NCBI GenBank assembly: GCA_038897035.1
Contig: JAWAXF010000005.1
Span: forward strand, 4,648-68,647
Source of the DNA: Candidatus Bathyarchaeia archaeon
GTDB taxonomy: Archaea; Thermoproteota; Bathyarchaeia; Bathyarchaeales; DTEX01
Direction: 5' to 3'
Length of the DNA stretch: 64,000 nucleotides
Shown piece after piece: positions 1,634-44,258 of the stretch; positions within the stretch are counted from its first letter, which is position 1; every line of letters starts with the position of its first letter. The position numbers and the translations under genes were made by a program. Below the pieces are notes generated by a model. The model had not been told where the DNA came from, did not search any database, and saw only the letters and a program-made list of their open reading frames with translations.

Positions 1634-1980
1634 AATAATAACTCCCCGTTTTAAAAATCACAATATTTTGTGATGAGGCTTTCTAATAAACCTTCATTGA
1701 AGCTTTATCTATAAATTGATTTACTCTAAAGGCATAAAGGTTAAATCCTGCAGAAAAATAAGTAATTAAAATCCTAGCTGAATAAAATGGTCAAGTTCGC
1801 AGAAGGTGTAAGCATGCGAATAACCATTATAAGGAGAAGGGTCTTTGAAGGTCTGATCTCTCAAGATCTTCTATTCCGAGAATATAGAGAGACCCCGCTG
1901 ATTAGCTTTGCTTCTAATAGCGAAAACTTGTTTTCCCCAGATGCCCACTTTAATTGTGACTGGTAATTAGGTGATTCATT

Positions 1981-3190: not shown

Positions 3191-3198
<8 letters not shown>
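1981..3198 (+). CDS. Polyferredoxin with two MvhD/FlpD-like domains
   Basis: Four CX2CX2CX3CP motifs (CSRCLICYSVCP, CQVCGICYGACP, CVGCDKCVFVCP, CMGCGLCALACP) arranged as two pairs. Each pair is followed by a Cys-rich MvhD/FlpD-like module ('YTCRGNS..LPCSGRV..IRCNDEFCRF' and 'VFCCLWSEF..IPCFKALD..VVCSDEDCKLKEG'). The stop overlaps the next ORF's start. Confidence 0.65.
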
Positions 3199-5426
<2,228 letters not shown>

Positions 5427-5562
5427 TGAAAAGATCTCCCAAATAAGCCTATTCTCTTGATATACTCCTTTTTTATTGAAGACTTCAAAGAAAAATATAA
5501 TAATATTTATTAATTGAAGATTGTTATTCTGTCATAAAATACGATGGTAAGGAGAGCCTGAT

Positions 5563-6288
5563 ATGAAAATATTACACGAGTTCGTTCCAACAAAAAAGTT
5601 TTTGAAGCTTGCGGAAGAAACAAAGGATCTTGTTGATGGGTGGAATATAACTGATAGCGCTGCTGGAAGACCGGCACCAAGCGGGACTGCTGTTGGCTGT
5701 GTTTTGAAGGCTAAGTACACGGACAAGATAGTCATACCGATTTTCGTACTGCACTATAAGGGACCTGTGGAAGTTGGTGGCCTGGCGCTGGCAGCCGAGT
5801 CTGTGGGCTTAGATGGATTAGTTATCACTATGGGCGATATACCTCAGTATGGCGAGCCCATAAAGATGCTTAAGTCCTCTGAGGAGGCACGCGATTTCCT
5901 CCGCACAACCGTCAAAATAAAAAACTTGAAGTTGGGCTGTCTCTTAACAGCCCGCCGCTCGGTAGACGAAGTTGTTGAGAGAATTAAATCCCCATGGGAC
6001 TTCATCTTCTTCATGAGGTTGGAGGAGAAGAATATTTCAATGCTTGAAAAAATATCAGAGGAGTGTAGGAAGCTAAACAAGCCAATTTACTCATACTTCT
6101 TAGTGGGCACGCCTAGAAACGTTGATATTGTAAAGTTAATAGGCTGGCCAGTCACCGCGACAATGGACCGAGTTGAGGAGGTTGCAGTTAAACTCGAAGG
6201 CATTGTTGATGGAGTCATCGCAACGTGTGCTGGAGATTACGAAGGAGATCTAGAACTTTTGAAAAAATTACAAAAATTCAGGAAATAA
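5563..6288 (+). CDS. Methylenetetrahydrofolate reductase (MetF)-like TIM-barrel protein, short form
   Basis: MTHFR-like pattern: 'HEFVPTKK' (compare EhhPP), 'WNITDSAAGRP' (compare VTD.p.G) and 'LDGLVITMGDIP' (compare lL.l.GD.P). Only 241 aa, so the assignment is tentative. Confidence 0.5.
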   Translation: MKILHEFVPTKKFLKLAEETKDLVDGWNITDSAAGRPAPSGTAVGCVLKAKYTDKIVIPIFVLHYKGPVEVGGLALAAESVGLDGLVITMGDIPQYGEPIKMLKSSEEARDFLRTTVKIKNLKLGCLLTARRSVDEVVERIKSPWDFIFFMRLEEKNISMLEKISEECRKLNKPIYSYFLVGTPRNVDIVKLIGWPVTATMDRVEEVAVKLEGIVDGVIATCAGDYEGDLELLKKLQKFRK

Positions 6289-6421
6289 CAACGTGTTAGA
6301 GACTTAAATAACCATCCTTTTCTTTCTTAATTTTTGAGATAAAAAATTGACTTAAATTTAAAATATTTTTTTGGGTTATTCCTTAAGGTGAAGTTGCGGA
6401 GATTGATGGTTGGGAGAAAAG

Positions 6422-7270
6422 ATGAACAGAACTGTCAGAATTGGTGTATTGAAGGCTGGTTGTTTGGGTTCACTACCATTATTAGAATTTCTTTTAGACG
6501 AAAGAGCTGAAAGAGAGGATATTGGTGTAAGGGTTATTGGTTCTGGAGCGAAAGTAACCGTGGAGGAATGTATTGAGTGCGCTAATGAGATTTTAAAGCA
6601 GAACCCTGATATCATAATATTTGTTGGACCAGCCCAGACGACATCTGGGCCGACTGAGGCACGTAAGGTACTCAGAAAAGCAGGTAAACCAGTAGTAGTT
6701 ATTTCAGATACCCCGGCAAAGAGGATCATTAAGGAGCTTGAGGAAAACGGCTTCGGGTATATAATTGTTGAGGCAGACTCGATGATAGGTGCTAGAAGAG
6801 AATTTCTAGATCCATCAGAAATGGCCCTCTATAATTCTGATGTAATTAAAGTTCTAGCCATAACCGGGGTTCTAAATATTATAGTTGAGGAGCTTGATAA
6901 AGCAATTAGCGCAATCAAATCCGGAGAAAAACCTATTTTACCAAGAGTGGTAATAGACGGTAAGGTAGTTGCTGAGAGATCTGGTTTTTCAAATCCATAC
7001 GCTAGGGCGAAGGCTATGGCGGCTTATGAGATGGCTAAGCAGGTTTCAGCAATGACCATTGAGGCTTGCTTTAAAATATATGACCCAGGGCTTTATATTC
7101 CATTGGTTACCGCAGCGCATGAGCTCATGAGGGTTGCTTCAAAACTAGCTGACGAAGCCAGAGAAATCGAGAAGGAGAATGATTCTGTACTGAGGAAACC
7201 ACATTACAAGGATGGCTCAATTGGAGTAAAAAGAAGCTTGATGGAGAAGCCATCTAAGATAACCAGTTAA
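6422..7270 (+). CDS. mtd: F420-dependent methylenetetrahydromethanopterin dehydrogenase
   Basis: Collinear match to methanogen Mtd as I recall it: 'LLDERAEREDI', 'GARREFLDPSEMALYN', 'NPYARAKAMAAYE', 'LADEAREIEKENDSVLRKPH'. The ATG at 6422 lies inside the listed ORF. Confidence 0.85.
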   Translation: MNRTVRIGVLKAGCLGSLPLLEFLLDERAEREDIGVRVIGSGAKVTVEECIECANEILKQNPDIIIFVGPAQTTSGPTEARKVLRKAGKPVVVISDTPAKRIIKELEENGFGYIIVEADSMIGARREFLDPSEMALYNSDVIKVLAITGVLNIIVEELDKAISAIKSGEKPILPRVVIDGKVVAERSGFSNPYARAKAMAAYEMAKQVSAMTIEACFKIYDPGLYIPLVTAAHELMRVASKLADEAREIEKENDSVLRKPHYKDGSIGVKRSLMEKPSKITS

Positions 7271-7327
7271 ATGTAAACGAATATAAGATAGTCTTAAGGA
7301 AAAACAAAAAGAAAAAGGGTGGTGCTT

Positions 7328-7600
7328 ATGCCGGCAATAGAGGTTGGTAGAATCTGTATAAAGACTAGAGGGAGGGAGTCTGGCAAGCGTTGCGTAGTAC
7401 TAGACATTATAGATAGGAACTATGCGCTGATAACAGGCCCAAAAAATGTTACGGGCGTTAGGAGAAGGAGAGTGAATATAAATCATCTTAAACCCACAGA
7501 AGACCTTATTAAGATAAAGAGAGGGGCATCTGATGAGGAAGTCTATAAGGCTATCGTAGAGGCAGGACTACTTGAAAAATATATGCAGAAGAGGGGATAA
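7328..7600 (+). CDS. rpl14e: 50S ribosomal protein L14e
   Basis: 'MPAIEVGRICIKTRGRESGKRCVV..ITGPK..GVRRRRVNINHLKPT' is typical L14e. Confidence 0.85.
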   Translation: MPAIEVGRICIKTRGRESGKRCVVLDIIDRNYALITGPKNVTGVRRRRVNINHLKPTEDLIKIKRGASDEEVYKAIVEAGLLEKYMQKRG

Positions 7601-20860: not shown

Positions 20861-21334
20861 ATGCATGAAGATAATGTAAAGGAGGCTCGAAGGACAATAG
20901 TTACTATGCTGAGCGTGGGGCAGGCTAAGGTTGGCGAGAGTTTCATTTATAGGGGCTCCGGGCAAGGGTGTCGTGGGTGTAAGTACTTTAACGTTTGCGC
21001 TGGAAACTTGAGCGTGGGGCGGATATATAGGGTCGTTAATGTGCGGAAGAGGGTGTTTAAATGTGGGGCCCTTGATGTCGAGATGTGCGTTGTTGATGTT
21101 GTTGAAGCAGATGTGGAGGCGGCGGTACCGTCAAAACAGGCGATTGAAGGAGTAATATTAACTCTTCATCCACAGGAGTGCGACAATAATCTCTGTGAAA
21201 ATCATATATTATGCCTGCCAGATGGTTTGATGGAAAATGATAAGTGTGAGGTTATCAGAGTTTATGGGAGGCTCAGCTGCCCTAAGGGGCTCCAGTTGAC
21301 GAGGGCGCTTCTGAGGAGGGTTCCTTCCTCGTGA
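20861..21334 (+). CDS. UPF0179-family conserved archaeal protein
   Basis: 'TMLSVGQAKVGESFIYRG....CRGCKYFNVCAGNLSVGRIYRV' resembles the archaeal UPF0179 family. Function unknown. Confidence 0.55.
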   Translation: MHEDNVKEARRTIVTMLSVGQAKVGESFIYRGSGQGCRGCKYFNVCAGNLSVGRIYRVVNVRKRVFKCGALDVEMCVVDVVEADVEAAVPSKQAIEGVILTLHPQECDNNLCENHILCLPDGLMENDKCEVIRVYGRLSCPKGLQLTRALLRRVPSS

Positions 21335-22007
21335 AGACCTCAATGAAACGCACAGTCTTCTTCTCTGGAAAGAACCTCTGTATGTCTAGGGATATGCCCC
21401 GCTTAATAATCTGTATTCCCTCGATGTAATAAGCTTCCTCTGGAACGTTTATTGCGACGCTATCCTCTCTAATCTCAAGTATGAATTTCTCCGCGTCCAC
21501 CTGCGGGACCCTGCGGTGGATGAGCGCCTTAATCTTCTCTTCAATTGTTTCAATCTTCTTTCTCACGGTAATTTCATAGATAAGTGTCTTCCCCGCTAAT
21601 GGGGGATTAAAGTCCAGTTGAACTCTACCGCCGCTTATCGCTCGGACGGTCGCTATTCTCCCGTCAACCTCAATCCTCATGCCAACCTTTGGCGCTACTC
21701 CCTGCGCTGTAAACCTCCTAAGGGGGTACATCTTAACTTTCTCTGGGTCTCTATTTCCGAAACCTTTTTCAGGAGGAATCTCTATGGTTACTGTTTGCCC
21801 TACATCGAGGTTCTGGATTGCTTCATCAAGGGCCTTTAGAATCCAACCCTCCCCCAAGACGACGAGTTTGGGCTCATATACCGCGCCCTCCTGGTAAATG
21901 CCCTCTTTCTTAGAGACCTCTTCAATGGTTGTGTCGAAGATCTCCCCTGTCTCAGCGACCTTGGCGACGTAATCTATCAGTAGGAAATCCCCTTTCTCGA
22001 AGGGCAA
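21282..22007 (-). CDS. FKBP-type peptidyl-prolyl cis-trans isomerase (long archaeal type)
   Basis: 'GDFLLIDYVAKVAETGEIFDTT' N-terminus, IF-insert and 'GRVQLDFNPPLAGKTLIYEITV' are typical FKBP/SlyD-like. The 3' end overlaps the convergent UPF0179 gene by 53 nt. Confidence 0.8.
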   Translation of the reverse strand: MPFEKGDFLLIDYVAKVAETGEIFDTTIEEVSKKEGIYQEGAVYEPKLVVLGEGWILKALDEAIQNLDVGQTVTIEIPPEKGFGNRDPEKVKMYPLRRFTAQGVAPKVGMRIEVDGRIATVRAISGGRVQLDFNPPLAGKTLIYEITVRKKIETIEEKIKALIHRRVPQVDAEKFILEIREDSVAINVPEEAYYIEGIQIIKRGISLDIQRFFPEKKTVRFIEVFTRKEPSSEAPSSTGAP

Positions 22008-22069: not shown

Positions 22070-22768
22070 TTAAATTTCCTCCTGCCTTAACTCAACATCC
22101 ACCTCGATACCTTTAATAGCGATTAGGGCATAGTTGCCCTGCTTAGCTGGCCCCGGATTAACTATAACTGTATCACCTATGCGATCAATCCCCTTGGCCT
22201 CATGTATGTGCCCGCACAGCGCTAGCAGCGGCTTCTTCTCTTCAATAAACCTTCTCACGCTAATGCTTCCAGCATGTATTCCCATAAACGTCCTATCTAA
22301 CTTAGTGTTCTTCGGAGGCGTGTGTGAAATAAGTATTATTCCCACGCACCTCGCCAGTTCATGAAGATTCTCCACACACCTCTGGAGGATCTTTGCTATT
22401 TCCTCTTCCTTCATCTCAAAGAACGTATTGAATGGCGATATGGTGCCACCGCCAAGACCGACAAAAGCCAAGTTATTGTGAATGAAGACTCCGCCATGGA
22501 TGCAGGTTAAACCATCTAGCTTAAGTTCTGTCAAGGAGGGCGGGTCACAATTTCCAGGGACGAAGATCGTGGGGGTTCCAGTTCCGGCTAATATTGTCAG
22601 TAGATTCTTTGCCTGCTCAACCGTGCTGAAGTTCGTTATGTCCCCGCATATAACCGCTAGATCCGCTCCGCTCCCTCTTATATTTTTAGCGAAGACCTCA
22701 AAAGCCCTCCTTGAGCCGTGGAAGTCTACCCCAGCAATAATCCTTACGCTCTTCTCATCTCCATTCAA
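22070..22768 (-). CDS. Small calcineurin-like metallophosphoesterase
   Basis: Motifs 'GVDFHG', 'VICGDITN', 'VPGNCDP', 'SHTPP' and 'CGHIHE'. 232 aa. The start lies 2 nt after the upstream HerA-like stop. Confidence 0.7.
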   Translation of the reverse strand: MNGDEKSVRIIAGVDFHGSRRAFEVFAKNIRGSGADLAVICGDITNFSTVEQAKNLLTILAGTGTPTIFVPGNCDPPSLTELKLDGLTCIHGGVFIHNNLAFVGLGGGTISPFNTFFEMKEEEIAKILQRCVENLHELARCVGIILISHTPPKNTKLDRTFMGIHAGSISVRRFIEEKKPLLALCGHIHEAKGIDRIGDTVIVNPGPAKQGNYALIAIKGIEVDVELRQEEI

Positions 22769-22770
22769 GA

Positions 22771-24369
22771 TTATTCACTCCTAAAATCCCGTAGGTGGAG
22801 GGGTAAACTATGCTCTACCCTCTCATTGGTGTTCTCCTCCATCTTCTCCCAGGCAGTCTTAGCGGAGGCTGCCGCCTTCCTCGGATACTCCTCAACCTCT
22901 ATCTCAACGATTATTGGGAATGGTGCTGGTACCGCAAGCCCCCATAGAATGGTCTCATGGTCTGCTAGGCCTGGCAGGTAATCTTTGAGCCTCTCTGAGC
23001 CATATTCCGTATACTCTAAGACCGCGTTCTGGTCGTTTCCGCTCCGGAGCCTAAAACATGCCACAGTATTGCACTGTGATATACAGCTCTTAAGAACATA
23101 GGCTGGTCTCTGAGTCATTATCACCAGGCCAACATTGTATCCGCCTGCCTGGCTTATCGTCTCAATCATCGATGCCTTAGCCTCGGATTGGGCGCTTGAC
23201 TCCTTTATTTCGACACCCCTCTCTGGGGCGAAATACTGCGCTTCCTCAACAACTATTATACATGCGAAGTCCCCATGATCCCCTCGTTTTATAGCATACT
23301 CCCTGATTTGATTTAGGATCTGGCTTGCAGTTCTATGCTGTGCTTCGATGTCAGAGTCTGCTGAGAAGTCAACTATTAAGGTATGGCTCTTCATTATCTC
23401 CTCCACCACGTCAAGCGGCTCACTCTGCTTATCTAGAAATTCACCCCTATTCTCTATAAACCACATGATGCTGCCGAGATATTTGCTCTTGCTTTCTGGC
23501 GTCTTAACCATGCTCCCATGCTCTATTACCTCACGGACCTTAGCAGCCAAATTCTTCCTCAAGAGTTCACCCCCCTCAGATAATAGCGCCCTAGCGGCCT
23601 CCAGAACAATATCCCGTTCCCTCCCCTTAAGCCCCATTTTCTCAACAATGAGTCTTGGATTATTTATTGGCGGCGTAAACCTGTTGTAGGGGATTATCCT
23701 AGCACCGTACTTCACTAGGCTGGAGTACTCCCCCCTCCTATCAAATATGATGAAGCGGGGCCTCGGTCTGAGAGCGCTGGCTCTAGCAACCATGTTAATT
23801 ATAAAGCTCGATTTGCCAGACCTCGTCATGCCGGCTACGAACATGTGCCCCCTAGCTATGGCATTTAGGTCTATGTATGCCGGAATCCTCGTCCCTCTAA
23901 TCTTCCCTATTTCTAGTAGGAGTGCGTCCCCCGCGCCTCTTTTGAATGCTAGGAAGCGCTCTAGGGCCTTCTCGCTTGGCTCATAGACGCTGTCCCACGG
24001 GGATGGGGCAACCTCAAGGGAGCGCCATTTGCCCCTCTCATCATAATATCCTAGAATCTCGGCGAGCGCGACCGTATACTCAAGTCGTTTTCCATAGTCT
24101 GCCCTAAGGCCCTTCTTGCCGGCAAGCGGCCCAACCCTGCCGGTGAGCATCTCCGGGTTATATGGTTGAACCTTAAAGACTCTTGTAAGCACGTATATCT
24201 CCGGCTTTAGTGGGTGCCTGATAAAGTAGAAGTTGTTGACCTTAACGCGCTTCTCCTCCATAACCACAAATGAAAGTAGGTCGTGTGTACAGCCGGATAA
24301 TGCGTATCCGACCAGTTCTAGCTCCTCTGAATGGCCGACTGTCCTCTCATCAACCATGTTCTCACACAC
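22771..24369 (-). CDS. herA: HerA-like FtsK/HerA-superfamily ATPase (paralog 1)
   Basis: Walker A 'VAGMTRSGKSS' and Walker B 'CIIVVEEAQYFAPE'. N-terminal barrel-like region and 'LVIMTQRP' motif. Overlaps the upstream NurA-like gene by 8 nt. Confidence 0.75.
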   Translation of the reverse strand: MCENMVDERTVGHSEELELVGYALSGCTHDLLSFVVMEEKRVKVNNFYFIRHPLKPEIYVLTRVFKVQPYNPEMLTGRVGPLAGKKGLRADYGKRLEYTVALAEILGYYDERGKWRSLEVAPSPWDSVYEPSEKALERFLAFKRGAGDALLLEIGKIRGTRIPAYIDLNAIARGHMFVAGMTRSGKSSFIINMVARASALRPRPRFIIFDRRGEYSSLVKYGARIIPYNRFTPPINNPRLIVEKMGLKGRERDIVLEAARALLSEGGELLRKNLAAKVREVIEHGSMVKTPESKSKYLGSIMWFIENRGEFLDKQSEPLDVVEEIMKSHTLIVDFSADSDIEAQHRTASQILNQIREYAIKRGDHGDFACIIVVEEAQYFAPERGVEIKESSAQSEAKASMIETISQAGGYNVGLVIMTQRPAYVLKSCISQCNTVACFRLRSGNDQNAVLEYTEYGSERLKDYLPGLADHETILWGLAVPAPFPIIVEIEVEEYPRKAAASAKTAWEKMEENTNERVEHSLPLHLRDFRSE

Positions 24370-25552
24370 CCAACAAGCCCCTTAAATGTTCTCCATCCCT
24401 GAGAACCCAGTTCTCACCATGCTGCAATGTTAGGAGGTTCAGGTCCTCCGGGCCTAAATCGCCCCTCTTTACGAGATCCAGCGCCTTGGAGTAAATCATG
24501 AGTGTCCGTATATTTGATAGGGAAGTGTTTATCCTAACTAGGCTATCAGCCTCCTTCAGCGCGAAGGGTATCCCGTCAACCTCAGAAGTCGCCAAAATTA
24601 TTGAGCCCACGTCCTCTAACCTATCCACACAGTATCTTGGAACCTCCAACCGGAATGGTGTCGTAAAGCCGGTCTTGGCATAGGAGAAGTGGATGCCCAA
24701 TATGTCCTCAATTTCCCTATCTGGTATCCCGATTTTATGGCACACTTTCCTGCATCGGCCGGGAACGCTGCCTTTTTCCGGGATTATCTTTGGCAGCGTG
24801 TACTCGCCTAAACCTAATATTGCATCTAAAAGGGCCGTGTCCCTCATCCTTGGGAAACCCAGCTCAGAGCATATATCGTTCACACGTGTCCTCTTAACAA
24901 AGCCGACCACCGGAATATCCATTTTAAAGCAGGCATACAATAAATCTATTAGCTTGAGAACAGCTGAGTCGAAGTCCCTCTTATACTCTTCCGTTGAGCC
25001 GGGCATCGTTGGCAGCAGCCAGAAGTTTAGCAGCAATGGGCCATCCAAGAGAACATATCTTGGCATCCAGCGCTCAATTGCATCCAAGGTTACCTCAAAT
25101 TGTAGCTTAAACGCTAGCAGGGATTCCCTGTCGCGGGCGCGCGTCTCATCCGGCCATACGTCCTGCTCGTCCACCCGGAATATTGGCTCATCAATTATCA
25201 TCTTTCCCTCCGCGGCTACGGCTGCTGATGCATAGAGTGGTATGAACGCCGATCTGAGGTCTACACCGTTACTACTTGCGTCTGAGGCAACCAGCCTCAG
25301 GTTAGATACGCTCTCCTCTACAATAAATCTACCGATAGGTATCTTTTCCCTCAGATCCCTTAGTAAAGCCCTCCTCCTCTCATTGTACTCCTTTAGCTTC
25401 CTAACTATCGTATCCGTCCCACTGTTAATTAGTTTGTCATATAGTCTTGGGTGAAATGTCTCGCTTTCGCTCTCGCTGGTTATTGGCGAGAGAAAGTCCC
25501 TCATGAATGGAATGGCTCTTTTAAAGATATCCCGACTATTCAGCCCACTCAT
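24362..25552 (-). CDS. nurA: NurA-like nuclease (paralog 1)
   Basis: NurA signature blocks 'LVASDASSNG', 'YVLLDGPLL' and 'VVGFVKRTRVND'. 396 aa. Confidence 0.7.
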   Translation of the reverse strand: MSGLNSRDIFKRAIPFMRDFLSPITSESESETFHPRLYDKLINSGTDTIVRKLKEYNERRRALLRDLREKIPIGRFIVEESVSNLRLVASDASSNGVDLRSAFIPLYASAAVAAEGKMIIDEPIFRVDEQDVWPDETRARDRESLLAFKLQFEVTLDAIERWMPRYVLLDGPLLLNFWLLPTMPGSTEEYKRDFDSAVLKLIDLLYACFKMDIPVVGFVKRTRVNDICSELGFPRMRDTALLDAILGLGEYTLPKIIPEKGSVPGRCRKVCHKIGIPDREIEDILGIHFSYAKTGFTTPFRLEVPRYCVDRLEDVGSIILATSEVDGIPFALKEADSLVRINTSLSNIRTLMIYSKALDLVKRGDLGPEDLNLLTLQHGENWVLRDGEHLRGLLGV

Positions 25553-25587
25553 GTCAAGTCATAGAATTTTTTATGTACACCTCTCCA

Positions 25588-26118
25588 TTAAGTCTTATGG
25601 GACTCAAAAGGGTAAGGTCTTCCATACTCATTTAGAAAGACTGTTTCCTCCCTCGGCTTTCTCGGCCTAGGCGCGGGTTTTTCATCCGAGTATCCGATCG
25701 TCAGCAATATTATGACTCTAAGGTTCTCTGGAACATTCAGTATCTGTCTAACCCCCTCCTCCTTGAATCTGCCTACCCAGCATACGCCAAGCCCCTCCTC
25801 GCACGCCTCAAGCGTCATGAAGCTGGCTGCTATAAACGGGTCCTGATTAAACCGCGCTGAGACGCTCGGGTCGCCTAAAATCGCTATCACAGCGCCAGCC
25901 TCACCAACATGTCTCTGCCCCTCACATGCATCAACAAGCTTGCCTTTAATCTCATCATCCTCAACAACTATGAAGTACCATGGCTGCAGGTTACGCGCTG
26001 ATGGCGCGAGCCTCCCGGCTTCAAGGATCTTCTCAAGAATATCTTTTGGTACGCGCTCTCTCCTATATTTCCTGATGGATCTCCTCTCGGAAATAACCCT
26101 GAATACCTCCATCCCCAA
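25588..26118 (-). CDS. Nitroreductase-family protein
   Basis: 'RRSIRKYRRERVPKD..L.AGRLAPSARNLQPW.FIVV' is a typical nitroreductase N-terminus. 176 aa. Confidence 0.8.
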   Translation of the reverse strand: MGMEVFRVISERRSIRKYRRERVPKDILEKILEAGRLAPSARNLQPWYFIVVEDDEIKGKLVDACEGQRHVGEAGAVIAILGDPSVSARFNQDPFIAASFMTLEACEEGLGVCWVGRFKEEGVRQILNVPENLRVIILLTIGYSDEKPAPRPRKPREETVFLNEYGRPYPFESHKT

Positions 26119-26205
26119 TAACCCCCATTAGTTGCCATATTAAAGATACCAGGCATATAACTCTTTACTTATGATTATGGGGGGCAAAAGCCTAAAGGGA
26201 GCTGT

Positions 26206-27378
26206 CTAGAATGGCTTCTGTGGGTTTAGGAAGGCAAAGAAGGCTTTGACGGCCTCGAGGCTCTCGTTATCCCTCGCGATCTTCTCTAGTACTCTTCCCT
26301 CAATCTCTGAGACAAACTCTTCAGTGAATTTTGAGGATATGTTGACTAGGCTATCCACGAGGTCTAGGGCTAGGGGGAGGTTCGTCGTTTCATTAAAGAG
26401 ACCCTCCTCAGATAATAGGTCCCTCAAATCCATCGTGTCAGGATACTCTAGCTCGCAAGGCGGTAGATCTCCATAGAATCTTACTTGCGCTCTCCTCATG
26501 CTAGCAAATCCCTTTGCGGGTAAATCCAGCATGTCGAAAGGTCTATATGTTCCTTTTCTAGCGATTTCGCGCAAATCATCAATAGACCCTGATATTCTTG
26601 ATGCGAAGGCTGCGGCCTTGGTATATGTTACGGGGTGCTCGTCGCTTATTACGCTATTGTATTCTAGGAATGATCTTTCAGGCATGATTAGGGCCAATAT
26701 ATGTTTATCAAGGATGTTTATAAAGTCCTTACAGCTAAGCTCTAGGAGCATGTAGCCTCCAATAATTCTGGAGTGGCTCCTCTTTATAACACCTAGCACC
26801 TTTCCACTTTTCCTTAATTCCTCGGTTATATTGAATATGTTTTCGAGGATTTCCCTCTCCCTTCTCTCTAAGGAGCCACTTTTCTTCATGGCTAGGGCTG
26901 GATAGACAAAACTGTAAAAGCTTCCGTCGAGAAAGAGTATATTGCATTCCTTTAATGCTTTCTGAGCCGTCTCCCTCTCATGCAGGGTTGTAACAAGATC
27001 AAATAGACGCTTACTATTCTCTCTGGAAAGAGCTTGCCTGCACCTGAAGATACCCGGCTTAAATTCCTCCCTCCTCTTAAATCCCCTCAAGTAAACTATC
27101 CCAGTTGCGTAGACCCCATACTTTATTCCTAGTCTCTCGCTAAGTTTAGGCGACCTTGAACTATCAACGGCCGCGATGGTGGACCTCCTATATTGATCTG
27201 GAAGGGGACGAATATGGTGAGTGATGCGGGTCTTAAGCTTCTTGAGACTCTCATTTATGCTCATTATCACCTTGGATAGTTCCTCTGCCTCCTTAGCCGC
27301 TAGCTCAAAGAAGCCATGCTGCAGATCTATCGGCAGCTTAATCCACTCAGGAGCCTCGCTCAGTTCCTCGCCCATCAA
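26206..27378 (-). CDS. nurA: NurA-like nuclease (paralog 2)
   Basis: Blocks 'IAAVDSSRS', 'ILFLDGSFYSF' and 'VLGVIKRSHSRI' match NurA catalytic motifs. The start lies 1 nt after the upstream HerA-like stop. Confidence 0.65.
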   Translation of the reverse strand: MMGEELSEAPEWIKLPIDLQHGFFELAAKEAEELSKVIMSINESLKKLKTRITHHIRPLPDQYRRSTIAAVDSSRSPKLSERLGIKYGVYATGIVYLRGFKRREEFKPGIFRCRQALSRENSKRLFDLVTTLHERETAQKALKECNILFLDGSFYSFVYPALAMKKSGSLERREREILENIFNITEELRKSGKVLGVIKRSHSRIIGGYMLLELSCKDFINILDKHILALIMPERSFLEYNSVISDEHPVTYTKAAAFASRISGSIDDLREIARKGTYRPFDMLDLPAKGFASMRRAQVRFYGDLPPCELEYPDTMDLRDLLSEEGLFNETTNLPLALDLVDSLVNISSKFTEEFVSEIEGRVLEKIARDNESLEAVKAFFAFLNPQKPF

Positions 27379-27379
27379 C

Positions 27380-28867
27380 CTATCCCCCTTGGATAGATGG
27401 CGGGATATAGGTGATTAGTAGTGGTACTGGGGATGGATTCATGGCGCCCGCGAAGTAGAATCTGCCTGGCTTAAGCTGTAGTAGGTGGCTGGCTGAGATT
27501 CCATAGGGTGATAGCCACTCAGAGGCTCCGCCCTCACCGCTCGCATCAAGCGGGTGTATCCTGCCGAAGAAATGCGTATTAAGGTTCCTCCTAACAGCAG
27601 CGTTCACGCCTATCTCACCCTTTATGCCCTGGGATATAAGCGTTAAGTTCAGCATTCTCTTTCTCCCAAGTGCGGCCAAATTTTTTATCATCTCGCATGT
27701 TTCAGCCTGTATTCCCCGGGCATCCCATGGAGCGTACTGTGGCGCCTCATCTATTATGAGGGCTATTCCAAGGCTCTTTCCAGCCTCCATTAGGCTGTAG
27801 AGGTGCCTTGATAGCGATAGGAAGAAGCCCAGCTTAGCCTCAGTTAATGCCCCGCCCATATCTATGGCAAGTATGCCCCTACGTTCCAACTCGGCGACGA
27901 GCTCCTCTATAGTTAAGACACCCATAACTGGCTGGAGGTCAGAGGGCTTAAGCCTCCTAAATACCCTCCTAAGCACCCTCTGGGCGGCAGCTTTTGAAAC
28001 CCTATGTTCTATGGTGGCCACGGAGTTCTCAATGTAGTTCTTCAGTTCTTTATAGAGGTGTTCGTTGGGGCTCTCTGAGTTAATGTAAGCCTCCTTCACC
28101 TTTGTATGCCATCCATCCACAAACTCATCGAAGAACTCTCTAAGAGCCTCATTTTTCGAGAAGTTAAAGGTTTTATTGCTAAAATAGCTCATTATCGATT
28201 CCTCATCGAGGGCTATCTCTGATAACTTGATGACCTCCTTTTCCCCTAGTAGGGGCGCGTAGTCGCTCCCGCTCCAGTCAAGTATAAGCACTTTATAGCC
28301 AACCCGCCTATACAGCGGGACAAGAATATACCTTGTAAACCAGGATTTACCGCAGCCGGTGCTCCCATATACGCCGGCATGATATGGTATGAAGTTCTTG
28401 TCGAAAGGGACCTTCCAGCTAGGGTGCCCTTCAATGTAAGCGTCTGACCAGACTACATCTCGCCCCTTAGCGATGTACTCCAGCGGCTTATCCCCTTCCT
28501 CAAGCAGGTAGACTGGCGACCTAGGCTGAATTATAGCCCTATTCGGCTCTATGCCCCCACTAGTTATTATGCCTATAGGTTCTATGGCGAATGAGTATAC
28601 TTCCCTAGCCCCGGATGGCTCCCCTCCATGCCTCAGATAAGCGACGTCAGGCCTATAAGAGGTATAACTTAAAAACTCGTTCTTCCCAAGCCCCTCTCTT
28701 AAAACTCCAATTATCTCGTTAACCGGGCTTTCTTCCCCACCATTCTTGATTAATACTAGGTCCTCAGCCACAATATAGTTTTCCATACCTTTAAGCAGGA
28801 TAAGCCTAGCCCTAGTCTCCGTGGCTCCATCTGCAACTCTTCCGATAAGCCTCAAGAACCCCACCAA
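27380..28867 (-). CDS. herA: HerA-like FtsK/HerA-superfamily ATPase (paralog 2)
   Basis: Walker A 'GVYGSTGCGKSW' and Walker B 'ALIIDEAPQYAP', plus 'LTLISQG' and an N-terminal barrel-like domain. 495 aa. Confidence 0.7.
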   Translation of the reverse strand: MVGFLRLIGRVADGATETRARLILLKGMENYIVAEDLVLIKNGGEESPVNEIIGVLREGLGKNEFLSYTSYRPDVAYLRHGGEPSGAREVYSFAIEPIGIITSGGIEPNRAIIQPRSPVYLLEEGDKPLEYIAKGRDVVWSDAYIEGHPSWKVPFDKNFIPYHAGVYGSTGCGKSWFTRYILVPLYRRVGYKVLILDWSGSDYAPLLGEKEVIKLSEIALDEESIMSYFSNKTFNFSKNEALREFFDEFVDGWHTKVKEAYINSESPNEHLYKELKNYIENSVATIEHRVSKAAAQRVLRRVFRRLKPSDLQPVMGVLTIEELVAELERRGILAIDMGGALTEAKLGFFLSLSRHLYSLMEAGKSLGIALIIDEAPQYAPWDARGIQAETCEMIKNLAALGRKRMLNLTLISQGIKGEIGVNAAVRRNLNTHFFGRIHPLDASGEGGASEWLSPYGISASHLLQLKPGRFYFAGAMNPSPVPLLITYIPPSIQGG

Positions 28868-29954: not shown

Positions 29955-30200
29955 AAAGTCAACTACACAATTAAGTGAAGACTTAGGGCCCCTGACAGCG
30001 CCGCCAAACATAATCCATAACCTAACAAGGGAGAGAGCAAACATAAACCTATTGTGGAAGAAGATCAAAGACCTCTAGAGGAGGGAGGTGCCGCTTTATT
30101 AAAACTTTTAGCAAAAACTAGTCTAACAATAATAATTTCCCCCTTTCGAGAACCTATAATTAAAGCTTTATAAGGCTTAATAGTTCATATTTTAGGGATT

Positions 30201-30404
30201 GTGGTATCTGATTTGAGATGGTATTATTGGGCTGGAATAATAATCTTTGTCATTCTGGGAATCTCTACAGTGATTCCTGCGCCTGCAAGCAAGGTATCCC
30301 TGCTAGGCTACTATGCCCACTGCTCCTTCGCCCCAATAAGCGCAATAATCTGCTTTATAATAGCTGGGGCAATGTACTGGCTTGGGAAAAAGAAAGAAAA
30401 ATAA
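30201..30404 (+). CDS. Hypothetical small two-TM membrane protein
   Basis: 67-aa ORF with two hydrophobic segments and a lysine-rich tail. No family recognised. Confidence 0.3.
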   Translation: MVSDLRWYYWAGIIIFVILGISTVIPAPASKVSLLGYYAHCSFAPISAIICFIIAGAMYWLGKKKEK

Positions 30405-30539
30405 TTCATGTAGCCCAAACTTCACCTTATTTTTAACTTATCGATTCTTTATCCTTGGGATAATCTTCAAATTAGTATAGAAAAGTGAGCAGGAATTTAT
30501 AGGAAGGTGAAAATAAAGAAGAAAGGAGTTTGGTTAGGT

Positions 30540-31319
30540 CTAAGCTGCGCCGTATAGTTTTGTAATCCCCTTTTTATCGCCTATGTAAAGATCTCTCTTA
30601 CTGGTTTCTCCAGCATAACTATAGCCATACATAGTCTCTTGGTATGCTGTACTCTGATAGACATCGCCCAATCCTATCCCGTGACCGAGCTCATGAGTCA
30701 CTATGTTCTGAAGATCCATTACTGTTAGACCCTGAGTAGCATTGTCCCATTCATAGTCTGTATCAAGTACTATATCGAATTCTATAATTGTCTTTGTCGC
30801 CTTATTGTACCAGAGGATTGTGACGGCAATAACGCCCCCGGTAGGATAGTTGCCCCAAACAATCGTGTTACACCCATCCAACTTATCGCTCGTCCATGCA
30901 AGGTCATCATAACCCTTATCTGTTATAGCAATGATGTCATTAAATAAATCTGGGGCTACTCCGTACCACGCAATACCCTCTAACTGACTATAAGCTCCAC
31001 TATCCCACTCCTCAGCTGCCATACCTATGGCTTTTATCACAAAATCTTGGCTCAGTCCACTACTAGAAGGATTTACTTCTAAATTAACCGGGAAAGTCTG
31101 CCATTTTGCACCTATAAGCTTGTAATAACCTGTCTCTTCTGATGGTGGCTTTGCCTTGCTTTTTACGAAGTGAATGAAAATAACTTGTTCGATATCTGGA
31201 GGTCGACTACTATCCAATTTTGCAAAAGCTAAGGGTATCATAGAACAACTTGCAAGCGCTATGATAAAAGCCATCAAAAATGCAGTAAATACTCTTTTAT
31301 CCATTTTCTCTCCCAACAT
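30540..31319 (-). CDS. Secreted/anchored metzincin-type zinc metalloprotease
   Basis: N-terminal signal/anchor 'VFTAFLMAFIIALASC', zinc motif 'HELGHGIGLGD' (HExxHxxGxxD) and a downstream Met-turn-like 'ETMYGY'. Confidence 0.65.
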   Translation of the reverse strand: MLGEKMDKRVFTAFLMAFIIALASCSMIPLAFAKLDSSRPPDIEQVIFIHFVKSKAKPPSEETGYYKLIGAKWQTFPVNLEVNPSSSGLSQDFVIKAIGMAAEEWDSGAYSQLEGIAWYGVAPDLFNDIIAITDKGYDDLAWTSDKLDGCNTIVWGNYPTGGVIAVTILWYNKATKTIIEFDIVLDTDYEWDNATQGLTVMDLQNIVTHELGHGIGLGDVYQSTAYQETMYGYSYAGETSKRDLYIGDKKGITKLYGAA

Positions 31320-31819
31320 TTAAAAAAGTATCCGGGATATAAATATATTGTTGGAATTTAGATTACTATTAAGTTTTTACTTCTAATTCAAATTTAAGCC
31401 ATTTGTTGGGATATTTTCCATGATTCCAAGAGGCCATGGAGAGTATCCCACTTTGAATTTTAGAGAGTTCTTTATCTTCTACTGGTATGTGTCCGATGAT
31501 TTTCACCTCTCTTTTATTTGGAAAATAAATAGTGAAAAAATGCCATTCTAAATGGATTTAGAAACCACCCTCCCCCCTTTCTGTTTGGAGGCTGGTTTAA
31601 TGGTGTCACACTTGAAAGAAGCCCGAAAAAAGAACGAAAACTTAATTGCCTTAAGAATTCCAAGGGAGTTAAGTGTAACACTTAGGAAAATAGGCATAAA
31701 CCCGAAAGAAGCATTTTTAAAGGCGCTTTATGAAATAGCAAAAAGAAACAGCCTCAGCACGGCCTCGAAAAAAGAAAACCCAATTTTAAGCCCGTTTTTG
31801 AAAATGAGCATGAATTTTT

Positions 31820-31897
31820 GGTGCGGCCGCCGGGATTTGAACCCGGGTTGCCGGCGTGGCAGGCCGATGTCCTAGACCAGGCTAGACGACGGCCGCC
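31820..31897 (-). tRNA. tRNA-Gly(GCC), intron-less, encoded CCA
   Basis: Hand-folded. Acceptor GCGGCCG/CGGCCGC. Anticodon stem UCGGC/GCCGG, loop CU-GCC-AC. T-arm CCGGG-UUCAAAU-CCCGG, discriminator A, CCA. Confidence 0.85.
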
Positions 31898-32129
31898 CAT
31901 TATTCAAGTTACGTTTTAAGTTCCTCAAATATTAATCCTTTTTGGCATTCTCTCATCCCTTTTCTACTTAGAGTTCTGTAAAACTTATTATAGTTTATTC
32001 TTAAAAATTTTTAATCCTCATCATAATAGTTGTTGCGTTGATGTTCTTTAGTGTTTTTAGAGTGTGTATCGAAATGTTTTTATGTAAAAATTTACATTTC
32101 ATTGTTATAAAATACATTGTGTGATCCAT

Positions 32130-42457: not shown

Positions 42458-43174
42458 TCACCTCTCCGCTATATATCTCCCCCTTTTCTCTATCTCAGAT
42501 ACTCTATCTAAAACATCTTTAGTGGAATCTGGACCCATTTCCTCATCATACCCCTCTATGATGGCGTTAAAGCACTCATCAACGTAATTATAATGCGTGC
42601 TTGCCAGAGCCCTCTTCACTAAGTGGAGATCTACTCCTTGGTACTCTAAGTCCGTACTCTGCTCACTAAGCCCAAAGTCCACTAGAACTATTTTTCCCTC
42701 CGGCGTTAAAATCATGTTTGATGTTGTGAGGTCGCCATGTACAATACCGTTTTTATGTAGCTTGCCTATCAGCCTACCTATCTGCCGGCATACCTTAACC
42801 CTTTCCTCGCTTGGTAAATCGTTGAGTATATTCTTTATTTGCTTCCCCTCAACATATTCCATAATTATTGTCGCCTCCTCAAGATCGACCATGAACACTA
42901 TGGGCGTTGGGACGCCAGCCTCCTTAGCCTTATGAATCATCTGCGGCTCATGCTTGGTCCTCTGAATTTGTATGGCCCTGTCCAGCTCCTGTAAACGATA
43001 CTTTTTTGGCAGCCTCCTCTTAAAGATAACTTTCCGCCCATACCACACTCCCAAATAGATGCTTGCCTCAGCACCCCTCTTTATCAAAGTGCCCAATGTG
43101 GAGTAATCTTGCGAAGCGCTGTTCTGGTTAGGGAAGCTACTAATGTGCTCCGAACCATGGGACGTCGACGTCAT
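42458..43174 (-). CDS. bud32: KEOPS complex kinase Bud32
   Basis: RIO-like small kinase: 'LIKRGAEASIY', 'VIFKRRLPKKYR' and 'IVHGDLTTSNMIL..LVDFGLS'. Overlaps the upstream kae1 gene by 35 nt. Confidence 0.8.
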   Translation of the reverse strand: MTSTSHGSEHISSFPNQNSASQDYSTLGTLIKRGAEASIYLGVWYGRKVIFKRRLPKKYRLQELDRAIQIQRTKHEPQMIHKAKEAGVPTPIVFMVDLEEATIIMEYVEGKQIKNILNDLPSEERVKVCRQIGRLIGKLHKNGIVHGDLTTSNMILTPEGKIVLVDFGLSEQSTDLEYQGVDLHLVKRALASTHYNYVDECFNAIIEGYDEEMGPDSTKDVLDRVSEIEKRGRYIAER

Positions 43175-44153
43175 CCAGCCTCCACTTCATTCTGACAAAG
43201 CTTTTCTCAATGGGTATTGTTAAACCATACTTGTAGCATAGTACGCCAGTCCACGCTATCATAGCGCCATTGTCTGTCGCATATTCTTTAGATACGACGG
43301 AGAAGTGGGCGCCGTGCTCCTCAGCCATCGCTCTCAGCATGGATTGGAGTCTCTTGTTCGCTGCAACCCCCCCAGTCAATAAGACCTCTACTTTCTCAGT
43401 ATGCGCCAGCGCCCTCTCTGTTACCTCGGTGAGCATAGAGAAGGCTATTTCCTGAAGACTAAAGCACAGATCCTCAAGAGGATATTTCCCCCCACGCAGT
43501 AGATTAACGGCCGCGGTTAACAGTCCGCTAAAAGACATGTCCATTCCCTTAACTGTATATGGGAGCTGTATCAGCCTTCTGCCCCTGGAAGCTAATTCCT
43601 CAAGAGCTGCCCCCAATGGTTTACCCGGCTCGGGCCTCAAGCCAGCCTCCCTAGCGAATACATCAAGACAGTTCCCAACGGCTATATCTAGTGTCTCACC
43701 GAAAATCCGATAACGACCTGCCTCAAAAGCAGATACAATTGTGTTACCACCGGAGACATAAAGTGTAACTGGATCCTTAACACGATTAACCATTCTGCCC
43801 ATTTCTATATGGGCTAAGCAGTGGTTAACCCCAACCAATGGTTTACCTAGATATGATGCTAAGGCCCTAGCGACGGTTGCGCCAACCCTTAGGCATGGGC
43901 CTAACCCAGGACCTTGGGAGAACGCTATTACATCTATTTCTTTGGGCTTTATTCCGGCCCTCCTAAGGGCTTCGGCTATAACCCTCCCGGCAACTATGAC
44001 GTGATGCCTAGATGCTTCTCGAGGATGGATCCCTCCTTTATCTGGAATATAGACGTCATTCACGTTCGCAAGTACCTCGCCGTCAAACGAGACTATTCCA
44101 ACGCCAAAATCATCAGCCGTGCTTTCTATACCAAGAGAAAAACCTTCACGCAT
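43140..44153 (-). CDS. kae1: tRNA N6-adenosine threonylcarbamoyltransferase Kae1
   Basis: 'LGIESTADDFGVGIV', 'GIHPREASRHH', 'FSQGPGLGPCLRVG' and 'VNHCLAHIE' are Kae1/TsaD motifs. The start at the 44153 ATG is chosen by N-terminal homology and is uncertain. Confidence 0.85.
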   Translation of the reverse strand: MREGFSLGIESTADDFGVGIVSFDGEVLANVNDVYIPDKGGIHPREASRHHVIVAGRVIAEALRRAGIKPKEIDVIAFSQGPGLGPCLRVGATVARALASYLGKPLVGVNHCLAHIEMGRMVNRVKDPVTLYVSGGNTIVSAFEAGRYRIFGETLDIAVGNCLDVFAREAGLRPEPGKPLGAALEELASRGRRLIQLPYTVKGMDMSFSGLLTAAVNLLRGGKYPLEDLCFSLQEIAFSMLTEVTERALAHTEKVEVLLTGGVAANKRLQSMLRAMAEEHGAHFSVVSKEYATDNGAMIAWTGVLCYKYGLTIPIEKSFVRMKWRLDDVDVPWFGAH

Positions 44154-44258
44154 ATAATTTTTAGAGCTCATACATCCTTTTAAAGATGATGGAAAAAGTT
44201 GTGAGGTCATCAACATATTTTTATCTTTGGTAGGTATATATTTAGATATTTAGGGAAA

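Follow-up and report, generated by a model that had tools for sequence, protein, structure and literature searches.

Two Anciently Diverged HerA-NurA Gene Pairs Adjoining in a Bathyarchaeia Chromosome, with a Likely Role in DNA-End Processing

Introduction

Two HerA-NurA-like gene pairs lie side by side in the genome of a Candidatus Bathyarchaeia archaeon, next to a gene for a small metallophosphoesterase (MPE). Do they form one composite system, possibly devoted to defence, or are they separate DNA-processing machines that happen to be neighbors? The initial annotation, made from the sequence alone, described them as two tandem modules without a nearby mre11 or rad50, and proposed that one or both could serve in defence or DNA processing. 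The locus was analyzed within a 64,000-nucleotide stretch of contig JAWAXF010000005.1 (the window) and compared with related loci and with known HerA and NurA systems.

Organization of the Locus

The locus comprises six co-directional open reading frames (ORFs):

27380-28867, minus strand: HerA2, 495 aa, first gene of module 2
26206-27378, minus strand: NurA2, 390 aa, second gene of module 2
25588-26118, minus strand: nitroreductase, 176 aa, between the modules (Pfam Nitroreductase, 101 bits)
24362-25552, minus strand: NurA1, 396 aa, first gene of module 1
22771-24369, minus strand: HerA1, 532 aa, second gene of module 1
22070-22768, minus strand: MPE, 232 aa, adjoining module 1

HerA2 and NurA2 are separated by 1 nt, NurA1 and HerA1 overlap by 8 nt, and HerA1 and MPE are separated by 2 nt; these spacings were computed with a mechanical first-start rule, and orthologue alignments suggest that some of the genes actually begin a few codons further downstream, so the exact values are soft. 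The ORF list reproduced the coordinates and spacings of the initial annotation, as well as the inverted gene order that it had described (herA comes first in module 2 and nurA in module 1). Homologues at 40-100% identity fall into more than 100 clusters for each locus gene, and, as judged from these sequence matches, all six are real genes and not chance ORFs.

The window surroundings are of housekeeping character, with genes for DNA ligase, Kae1, GluRS, transketolase, and leucine/lysine-type biosynthesis. ORFs in the window reach at most 638 aa, and none encodes Mre11 or Rad50; all those of at least 300 aa were placed in other families or in none. Likewise, more than 50 module loci were examined, and none has either protein within 10 kb.

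A TATA-like element (cataaaaaatt) is located about 20 nt upstream of the NurA1 ATG, and the nitroreductase gene has an A/T-rich box of its own upstream. Only close Bathyarchaeia relatives have the nitroreductase gene after NurA2; it is missing from this position in Hecatella, Korarchaeum, Nitrososphaerales, and a Thermoprotei-labelled metagenome-assembled genome (MAG), and is probably an unrelated passenger.

Identity of the HerA and NurA Proteins

HerA1 matches Pfam DUF87/HerA (56.7 bits) and carries the Walker A motif GMTRSGKS and the Walker B motif VVEEAQ. Its family profile detects Sulfolobus solfataricus HerA (4d2i) over the whole ATPase domain with 61.3 bits, and HerA1 is thus a HerA-family ATPase. 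HerA2 matches the same Pfam family (61.1 bits), with the motifs GSTGCGKS and LIIDEAPQY, while its profile gives no match to 4d2i. In the AlphaFold (AF2) model of HerA2 (pLDDT 87.9), the best 50 Foldseek matches in the PDB are all HerA, including Thermococcus kodakarensis 9x1m_A (E = 1.8e-20) and S. solfataricus 4d2i (TMt 0.65). HerA2 is a divergent HerA-family ATPase of the hexameric-translocase type. Walker A and B are unvarying in both HerA families, and G171, K174, S175, D373, and E374 of HerA2 are unvarying across 41 orthologues.

With regard to the nucleases, NurA1 is a NurA-family member that matches Pfam PF09376 (74.3 bits), and its profile detects no solved NurA by sequence. D91, D170, E334, and D336 are unvarying in 37 orthologues, and E122 nearly so. 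NurA2 itself falls below the Pfam threshold, but most of its orthologues match PF09376, and its family profile detects S. solfataricus NurA (2ygk, E = 9e-4). For the AF2 model of NurA2 (pLDDT 91.4), the first 11 Foldseek matches in the PDB are all NurA structures. The list is led by 2ygk (E = 5.6e-11), with the T. kodakarensis and Pyrococcus furiosus NurA and TdpAB after it; the model thus indicates a divergent NurA-family nuclease of the RNase H/PIWI fold. D72, E104, D151, D339, and D342 are unvarying across 37 orthologues. The site of Pyrococcus NurA was reported as Asp51/Glu105/Asp126/His411 (PMC3300031), and the invariants of both NurA families include positions that align with it. All four proteins are true members of their families. 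Their catalytic residues, whose possible degeneracy the initial annotation had named as a point against its own proposal, are intact.

The gene identities proposed initially are therefore borne out by Pfam matches and, for NurA2, by orthologues, profile, and model. The same is true of the strong divergence between paralogues: BLASTP gives no significant match between them, and profile-profile alignment reaches only E = 0.004 to 0.01, with the catalytic motifs aligned.

Compared with the canonical archaeal HerA-NurA systems (4d2i/2ygk; P. furiosus 3tai; T. kodakarensis 9x1l-9x1p), the locus has the same combination of a DUF87/HerA ATPase and an RNase H-fold nuclease, with matching folds, retained nuclease acidic residues and Walker motifs, and tightly spaced genes. 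It differs in that mre11 and rad50 are absent from the operon, module 1 runs from nurA to herA, and sequence identity in structural alignments is only 12-18%. In addition, both HerAs fall more than tenfold short of the NCBIfam repair-HerA equivalog thresholds: HerA1 and HerA2 score 62 and 24 bits (with HerA_Thermprot) against a cut-off of 800.

Distribution and Inheritance of the Two Modules

Module 2 is a fixed two-gene operon present in several classes of Thermoproteota/TACK, comprising Bathyarchaeia, Nitrososphaeria, Korarchaeia, and a Thermoprotei-labelled genome. NurA2 directly follows HerA2 in every locus examined, and the abutting pair is kept amid differing neighborhoods in Hecatella, a 1.67-Mb JGI contig, the Thermoprotei-labelled MAG, Korarchaeum, and Nitrososphaerales. 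HerA2 identity is 55-89% among Bathyarchaeia, Nitrososphaerales, Korarchaeum, and this MAG, a level of conservation similar to that of FttA, and the constraint on module 2 is very strong.

Module 1 is a narrower family, mainly of Bathyarchaeia, fixed beside FKBP26-UPF0179-EgsA-FttA. The block NurA1-HerA1-MPE-FKBP26-UPF0179-EgsA-FttA is kept in about 30 Bathyarchaeia species, NurA1 precedes HerA1 in 38 of 42 loci, and only 30 representative clusters among 1.84 billion match HerA1 at E <= 1e-30. HerA1 is conserved at about the level of EgsA. The NurA1-HerA1 pair is gone from loci L006 and L056, and HerA1 from L041 and L048; absence in these few relatives is secondary loss, and the module is dispensable there. 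Five scanned representatives of the HerA1 family carry inteins in the P-loop region, and a further three show the same split-match pattern. Inteins favour conserved ATPases of replication and repair, and their presence here supports a role in chromosome maintenance.

The identities of NurA1, HerA1, and MPE track that of FttA (Spearman 0.93-0.94), which indicates vertical inheritance. Both pairs are old and vertically inherited, and they do not constitute a mobile defence island. Moreover, the two modules stand side by side only in one sub-clade of Bathyarchaeia, and they are not a single unit.

The Metallophosphoesterase

MPE matches Pfam Metallophos_3 (64.7 bits; residues 50-226, the C-terminal three quarters), Metallophos_2, and Metallophos, and its motifs DxH, GD, GNCD, H, and GHIH are unvarying. 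It is of the aq_1956/TT1561-like (Metallophos_3) type: its nearest solved relatives are aq_1956 (2yvt, 57 bits), which the family profile matches over a similar stretch, and TT1561 (1uf3, 33 bits). MPE is not Mre11, although it has the calcineurin-like fold class in common with it: at 232 aa it lacks a capping or DNA-binding domain, and its likeness to Mre11 and SbcD (only 22-27 bits) is confined to the first two, N-terminal motifs, which are generic.

The steadiest neighbor of MPE is FKBP26, not HerA1. Scanning from the MPE side, FKBP26 was directly downstream in 29 of 55 loci, while HerA1 was upstream in 7 of the 45 metagenome loci that extended far enough on that side (counting L070 as an eighth was an error due to an over-extended ORF). 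MPE is retained in L006 and L056, where NurA1-HerA1 is missing, and is absent from L037-L039, the most distant NurA1-HerA1 loci. On the other hand, it lies within 90 nt after HerA1 in 29 genome loci, stays with HerA1 where a 3.3-kb two-component-system insertion parts it from FKBP26, and is missing together with HerA1 in L041 and L048. MPE is probably co-transcribed with module 1 at this locus; it is a conserved gene of the FKBP26 backbone rather than a dedicated third component or obligatory partner.

Functional Interpretation

These data are probably best explained by two HerA-NurA operons that diverged long ago, were inherited vertically, and were brought together in a housekeeping region of the Bathyarchaeia chromosome by a lineage-specific rearrangement, and that likely act in DNA-end processing for chromosome maintenance. 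The observed gene identities, folds, conserved catalytic residues, synteny, vertical descent, and lack of mobile-element or defence hallmarks all bear on this reading. The complexes solved from Sulfolobus and Thermococcus suggest by analogy that each pair most likely forms a HerA hexamer with a NurA dimer as its cap. The ATPase would draw in a DNA end through its pore and pass the strands on to the two NurA sites, which are RNase H-like and Mn-dependent, leading to resection or degradation of the end. The two pairs would presumably divide this work in some way. Several findings count against this explanation: HerA1 scores equally well against antiphage HerAs (9c1m and 8wiv, 62-65 bits) and Sulfolobus HerA, both HerAs are far below the repair-HerA cut-offs, the NurA1 profile misses the solved NurAs, module 1 is dispensable in L006 and L056 and partly in L041 and L048, and no Mre11 or Rad50 is nearby. 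The low repair-HerA scores and the losses of module 1 leave room for a role uncoupled from Mre11-Rad50, and one pair may act outside canonical Mre11-Rad50-coupled resection.

How the work might be divided can be proposed only tentatively. Module 2 could be the essential, TACK-wide recombinational resection pair, with Mre11-Rad50 encoded elsewhere, and module 1 a second, specialised machine that the cell can do without and that might serve at stalled forks, in the uptake or degradation of DNA, or in other end-processing, in parallel with the extra pairs of Pyrobaculum (PMC3396285). The FttA-like conservation of HerA2 across several classes, the detection of Sulfolobus NurA by the NurA2 profile, and the narrow, secondarily lost module 1 favour this assignment; however, HerA1 is nearer than HerA2 to the characterised repair HerAs (4d2i, HerA_Thermprot), of the two NurAs it is NurA1 that clears the Pfam threshold, and the roles could just as well be the other way round. 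It is rather unlikely that NurA1, HerA1, and MPE together make up a three-component end-processing system independent of Mre11/Rad50, in which the aq_1956-type MPE would contribute an Mre11-like nuclease or phosphatase step. The close spacing behind HerA1, the joint loss, the unvarying metal-binding motifs, and the correlated divergence of MPE and HerA1 (rho 0.93) agree with such a system, but shared vertical descent explains the correlation equally, and the rarity of HerA1 upstream of MPE, the survival of MPE after loss of the pair, its absence from the most distant loci, and its domain content speak against it.

An anti-virus or anti-plasmid function of one or both modules, with a HerA ATPase and a nuclease effector, is very improbable. 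HerA ATPases recur in defence systems, and Sir2-HerA (8wld/8j4u) and DUF4297-HerA (9c1m/8ziq/8xau) have the HerA hexamer fold in common with the proteins described here; TdpAB (8wfd), to which the models of NurA2 and HerA2 are similar as well, likewise combines a HerA-like ATPase with a NurA-like nuclease. Sporadic loss of module 1 and the lack of nearby Mre11-Rad50 would also fit. PADLOC matches HerA1 (best 116 bits) and MPE (candidate PDC-S10, 66 bits), but mostly through the shared ATPase core in the case of HerA1, and it has no match for NurA1 or NurA2; the NCBIfam antiphage HerA models give at most 75 bits against cut-offs of 800-850. No adjoining Sir2, DUF4297, csm6, CRISPR array, flanking direct repeats, or other partner effector was found at the locus, neither pair occurs in the viral contig collection searched, and a plasmid search with HerA1 returned just remote matches. 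Divergence tracks marker genes, and conservation of 55-89% is unlike that of fast-evolving defence genes. The initial annotation had itself named conserved, syntenic, non-island-like modules in the lineage as evidence against its proposal, and this is what their housekeeping neighborhoods display across deep divergence.

Two vertically inherited HerA-NurA operons in one genome are a real but fairly ordinary finding. In Pyrobaculum and other Thermoproteales, several diverged pairs per genome, three or more in Pyrobaculum, are each inherited vertically as a pair, and one herA paralogue group there is barely detectable with Sulfolobus HerA, as is the case for HerA2 (Bernick et al. 2012, PMC3396285). 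The parallel concerns pair number, inheritance, and detectability and does not imply orthology to modules 1 and 2; unlike the Pyrobaculum case, the present locus has no csm6/CRISPR association, and its two pairs adjoin.

Organization and Genomic Setting of the Locus

Two tandem NurA/HerA modules and a small metallophosphoesterase (MPE) had been described in the initial annotation as six minus-strand genes, and this observation is confirmed. The open reading frame (ORF) listing reproduced the six co-directional genes at the coordinates claimed, together with the junctions of 1-nt gap (module 2), 8-nt overlap (module 1), and 2-nt gap (to the MPE gene); start codons were assigned by a mechanical rule, and the true starts may move by a few codons.

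Genes of the HerA/NurA locus (window positions, strand, assignment, and basis)
27380-28867, minus strand, HerA2 of module 2 (ORF listing and Pfam DUF87/HerA)
26206-27378, minus strand, NurA2 of module 2 (ORF listing; NurA by orthologues, family profile, and fold)
25588-26118, minus strand, nitroreductase, situated between the modules (ORF listing and Pfam nitroreductase family)
24362-25552, minus strand, NurA1 of module 1 (ORF listing and Pfam NurA)
22771-24369, minus strand, HerA1 of module 1 (ORF listing and Pfam DUF87/HerA)
22070-22768, minus strand, MPE, 232 aa (ORF listing and Pfam Metallophos_3/2)

The window is ordinary chromosome. It encodes the termination factor FttA/aCPSF1, an EgsA-type iron-dependent alcohol dehydrogenase, FKBP26, a THUMP methyltransferase, an ATP-dependent DNA ligase, Kae1, GluRS, transketolase, aconitase/IPMDH-type enzymes, and one tRNA-Gly, and the GC content over the HerA/NurA locus (0.47-0.49) is similar to that of its surroundings. 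The immediate neighbours are NurA, nitroreductase, MPE, THUMP methyltransferase, and FKBP26. A/T-rich TATA-like boxes upstream of herA2, the nitroreductase gene, nurA1, and the FKBP26 gene suggest that these four begin separate transcription units. About 20 kb from the block, the ligase (46176-47939, minus strand) and Kae1/TsaD (43140-44216, minus strand) are likewise in keeping with a part of the chromosome devoted to core information processing. Elsewhere in the window, an ORF of 553 aa (52435-54096, minus strand) matches no Pfam family at E ≤ 1e-5, and the adjoining ORF of 318 aa (54218-55174) has a sub-threshold coiled-coil-type match only.

Just upstream of the THUMP gene, GC falls to 0.39 (30069-32000), and this stretch carries a matrixin-like secreted peptidase (30540-31319) and the tRNA-Gly (31819-31896). 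In the syntenic relative L001 (positions 1-7400), this place is taken by DUF2283/DUF4258 toxin-antitoxin-like pairs together with a TnpB-type fragment, which indicates that a variable spot starts beside, but outside, the HerA/NurA block.

Family Membership of the HerA and NurA Proteins

Both HerA proteins pass the cut-off of Pfam PF01935 DUF87 (23.2 bits), with 56.7 bits for HerA1 and 61.1 bits for HerA2. The HerA fold, an N-terminal barrel joined to a RecA-like ATPase, was recognized for HerA2 in an AlphaFold model (pLDDT 87.9; the top 50 PDB fold matches are all HerA) and is predicted for HerA1 from its family profile, which aligns to Sulfolobus HerA 4d2i over residues 140-481; Walker A and B are intact in both. 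The Walker A motif GxxGxGKS and the acidic pair of Walker B are invariant in either family.

Assignment to a characterized HerA subgroup gave a different outcome, as the equivalog thresholds for repair and antiphage HerAs were all missed by an order of magnitude. HerA1 scored 62.3 bits and HerA2 24.3 bits against NF040937 HerA_Thermprot (cut-off 800 bits), while against NF040819 helicase_HerA (cut-off 970 bits) and the antiphage models NF042943 and NF042944 (cut-offs 800 and 850 bits) HerA1 reached 44.4, 75, and 47.5 bits, respectively, and HerA2 gave no match. When compared with solved structures, the HerA1 profile scored about equally against antiphage HerAs (9c1m, 64.5 bits; 8wiv, 61.8 bits), Sulfolobus HerA 4d2i (61.3 bits over the whole ATPase), and Thermococcus HerA 9x1l (52.6 bits), and the HerA2 profile barely registered. 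HerA1 forms a narrow family: of 1.84 billion representative clusters, 30 match it at E ≤ 1e-30. Its distant relatives are sparsely named, and those with names, at 28-34% identity, come from metagenome-assembled genomes (MAGs) of Geothermarchaeales and Promethearchaeota.

Inteins at or near the Walker A region bring many HerA1-family representatives to a length of 750-1320 aa. Inteins were found in the P-loop region of five scanned representatives (P0362, P0365, P0366, P0369, and P0371), some of them bearing LAGLIDADG homing-endonuclease domains and HTH domains; two inteins appear to be present in P0362, and three more representatives (P0370, P0373, and P0374) show the same split-match pattern. 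HerA1 of the window is itself intein-free. Conserved sites in ATPases of replication and repair are a preferred location of inteins.

With regard to the nucleases, NurA1 passes Pfam PF09376 NurA (74.3 bits; cut-off 21), and NurA2, which has no match itself, satisfies it at the family level only, in that most of its orthologues carry PF09376. The NurA2 family profile also finds Sulfolobus NurA 2ygk, and the AlphaFold model of NurA2 (pLDDT 91.4) retrieves only NurA structures at the top of the PDB fold search (2ygk, 9x1n_G, and 3tai, E = 6e-11 to 6e-8). These three lines of evidence together establish NurA2 as a NurA. Single-sequence PDB searches with NurA1 and NurA2 returned chance matches only, and the NurA1 family profile retrieved no NurA from the PDB, so that NurA1 is not placeable relative to solved NurAs by sequence. 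The model of NurA2 shows the RNase H/PIWI-like fold, and an Asp-Glu-Asp-(His/Asp) metal site is represented by invariant D72, E104, D151, and D342 in NurA2, where D339 is invariant as well, and by invariant D91, D170, and D336 plus a nearly invariant E122 in NurA1. These metal-site residues of the two align with each other in profile-profile comparison and, by motif position rather than superposition, probably correspond to the metal site of Pyrococcus NurA (PMC3300031). A further NurA1 homologue, labelled 'Freyarchaeota', lies on a contig of 4.5 kb, a length insufficient for assessing its taxonomy or context.

The strong divergence claimed between the paralogues was borne out: BLASTP found no significant match between HerA1 and HerA2 or between NurA1 and NurA2, and profile-profile comparison gave a marginal alignment with the catalytic motifs in register. 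Degeneracy of the catalytic residues, a concern raised in the initial annotation, was not found, as the ATPase and nuclease residues are intact in all four families. Each module is a tightly paired set of genes with HerA and NurA folds and intact catalytic residues.

Absence of Mre11 and Rad50 and Comparison with Known Operons

It had also been noted that no Mre11 or Rad50 is encoded nearby, and this holds well beyond the window. No mre11 or rad50 was found in the 64-kb window, where all ORFs are at most 638 aa and every ORF of at least 300 aa belongs to another family or to none, nor within 10 kb in 43 Bathyarchaeia loci, nor beside module 2 in five other lineages. The locus lacks the same-cluster mre11 and rad50 of the canonical herA-mre11-rad50-nurA operon. 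In related loci, flanking ORFs that are large or conserved were considered as Rad50 or Mre11 and rejected, being an ABC transporter, a histidine kinase, DNA polymerase B, AlaRS, a P-type ATPase, a GFO-type oxidoreductase, a sugar-isomerase-type TIM barrel, prolyl oligopeptidase, DUF763, and others. A literature search for Bathyarchaeia with Rad50/Mre11 found nothing.

Pyrobaculum species were reported to have at least three nurA-herA pairs that descend vertically, of which one is CRISPR/csm6-linked and another a putative recombination orthologue (Bernick et al., PMC3396285). Several diverged pairs per genome are thus already familiar from this region of the archaeal tree.

Distribution and Descent of the Two Modules

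An alignment scan with NurA1, using one genome per species, yielded 43 loci, nearly all labelled Bathyarchaeia or Bathyarchaeota. The block NurA1-HerA1-MPE-FKBP26-UPF0179-EgsA-FttA, in which the last four form a housekeeping block, is present in about 30 species, the most distant of which have NurA1 at 44-50% identity. For NurA1, HerA1, and MPE, identity to the window proteins follows that of FttA (Spearman 0.93-0.94), a signature of vertical descent under purifying selection, and HerA1 is conserved to the same degree as EgsA and FKBP26. L024 (DATKLC010000096.1), which is labelled Candidatus Krumholzibacteriaceae bacterium, likewise carries the archaeal NurA1-HerA1-MPE-FKBP26-EgsA-FttA block in full and is almost certainly a mis-binned Bathyarchaeia contig.

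Module 1 is sporadically missing. Two loci (L006 and L056) have the same backbone without NurA1-HerA1, and two others (L041 and L048) keep NurA1 and lack HerA1 and MPE. In a neighbour-joining tree of FttA and EgsA, all four nest within clades that have the full set, from which it follows that the absences are secondary losses and not the ancestral state. An insertion of module 1, as first read from L006, was rejected on the basis of this tree.

The order THUMP-HerA2-NurA2-nitroreductase directly upstream of NurA1 occurs only in the sub-clade of the window (L001/L002/L007, L008, L012, L042, and L043), and the side-by-side placement of the modules is a lineage-specific gene order. The corresponding place in L015, L029, and 13 other loci is occupied by a GFO/IDH/MocA oxidoreductase and an AP_endonuc_2/xylose-isomerase-type TIM-barrel gene. 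Since the AP_endonuc_2 Pfam family also includes endonuclease IV, a repair link of this TIM-barrel gene is conceivable.

Module 2 is an old, strongly constrained two-gene operon. Homologues of NurA2 and HerA2 occur in Bathyarchaeia, Hecatellales, Nitrososphaeria/Nitrososphaerales, Conexivisphaera, Korarchaeum, and a Thermoprotei-labelled MAG; in every locus fetched, herA2 and nurA2 abut in the same order, and the neighbours vary. Between these classes HerA2 identity is 55-89%, and long stretches of the protein, Walker A and B among them, are invariant. The family extends over several Thermoproteota classes, at a level of conservation equal to that of FttA.

The Small Metallophosphoesterase

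The closest solved relatives of MPE are aq_1956 (2yvt, 57 bits) and TT1561 (1uf3, 33 bits), and Mre11/SbcD proteins score 22-27 bits over the first generic N-terminal motifs only. All metal-binding motifs are invariant. At 232 aa, with other families nearest and no Rad50, MPE does not have the capping domain, nearest relatives, or Rad50/SbcC partner of an Mre11/SbcD protein.

Whether MPE belongs to module 1 depends on the side from which it is viewed. From the HerA1 side, MPE lies at most 90 nt downstream in 29 loci and remains beside HerA1 in loci where an insertion with a histidine kinase and response regulators has come between MPE and FKBP26, and MPE was on this basis regarded as a conserved third component. 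This assessment was downgraded after an unbiased scan from the MPE side, in which HerA1 was upstream in 7 of the 45 metagenome loci with enough sequence (8 of 45 counting L070, which has an over-extended ORF), and FKBP26 (21282-22007 in the window) was directly downstream and co-directional in 29 of 55 metagenome loci (L055-L134). MPE-FKBP26 pairing is more persistent than HerA1-MPE adjacency, and by these counts MPE is best read as an FKBP26-backbone gene that follows module 1 in this clade. It is probably not a component of module 1; co-transcription with it here is plausible. We know of no functional link between aq_1956-type phosphoesterases and FKBP26.

The insertion between MPE and FKBP26 (about 3.3 kb; L027, L030, L031, L034, and L045) is confined to one Bathyarchaeia sub-clade and encodes, on the opposite strand, a PAS histidine kinase of about 700 aa and one or two response regulators.

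Possible Roles of the Two HerA-NurA Pairs

By analogy with solved Sulfolobus, Pyrococcus, and Thermococcus systems, each pair would assemble as a HerA hexamer with a NurA dimer, and such a complex may thread a DNA end and degrade one or both strands. Either pair may be the one that serves homologous recombination: HerA1 and NurA1 are the closer pair according to curated family models; HerA2-NurA2 is the broader, more constrained one, and NurA2 is the paralogue that detects Sulfolobus NurA. An unlikely reading is that NurA1-HerA1 and the co-oriented aq_1956-type phosphoesterase make up a DNA-end-processing machine that is specific to Bathyarchaeia and independent of Mre11/Rad50, and that the TACK-wide HerA2-NurA2 pair is a second, essential machine with a different substrate. 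If true, one archaeon would run two non-canonical HerA-NurA motors in parallel.

The locus represents two additions to the known HerA-NurA systems: two deeply diverged operon families, that of module 1 largely confined to Bathyarchaeia, which are kept vertically outside the classic herA-mre11-rad50-nurA cluster. They extend the observation of several pairs per genome from Pyrobaculum to uncultured lineages and offer two well-defined families for asking what extra HerA-NurA machines do. Current profiles cover them weakly, and family-specific profiles would improve annotation over Pfam and NCBIfam.

The Defence Interpretation

A defence role for one or both modules had been proposed in the initial annotation and is not supported. 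PADLOC returned matches for HerA1, HerA2, and MPE, mostly over the shared ATPase core, and none for NurA1 or NurA2. Synteny within the housekeeping block and divergence both resemble those of marker genes; the sporadic loss of module 1 is the sole island-like trait. Hallmarks of mobile or defence elements were not seen. No Sir2 or DUF4297 effector adjoins HerA1 or HerA2, no relatives of either were found on viral contigs, and a plasmid search with HerA1 gave three remote matches only; that on Aquifex plasmid ece1 was discarded as a remote split DUF87 gene without NurA or MPE context. A tandem-repeat scan of the window and a direct-repeat scan of 15000-36000 revealed no CRISPR-type array, and the latter found no pair of direct repeats flanking the locus. 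In contrast to the Thermoproteales nurA-csm6-herA cluster, the genes here overlap or abut without csm6 between them and without a CRISPR array. Literature searches found nothing on HerA/NurA with a metallophosphoesterase and defence, and passing mentions only of TdpAB. As the evidence points away from defence, little is at stake here for defence biology. For archaeal DNA repair the value is modest.

Among distant HerA1 relatives (about 30% identity and 100 bits), P0395 and similar proteins of 630-655 aa have an N-terminal PLD-family nuclease fused to the HerA ATPase, a different and probably defence-type architecture.
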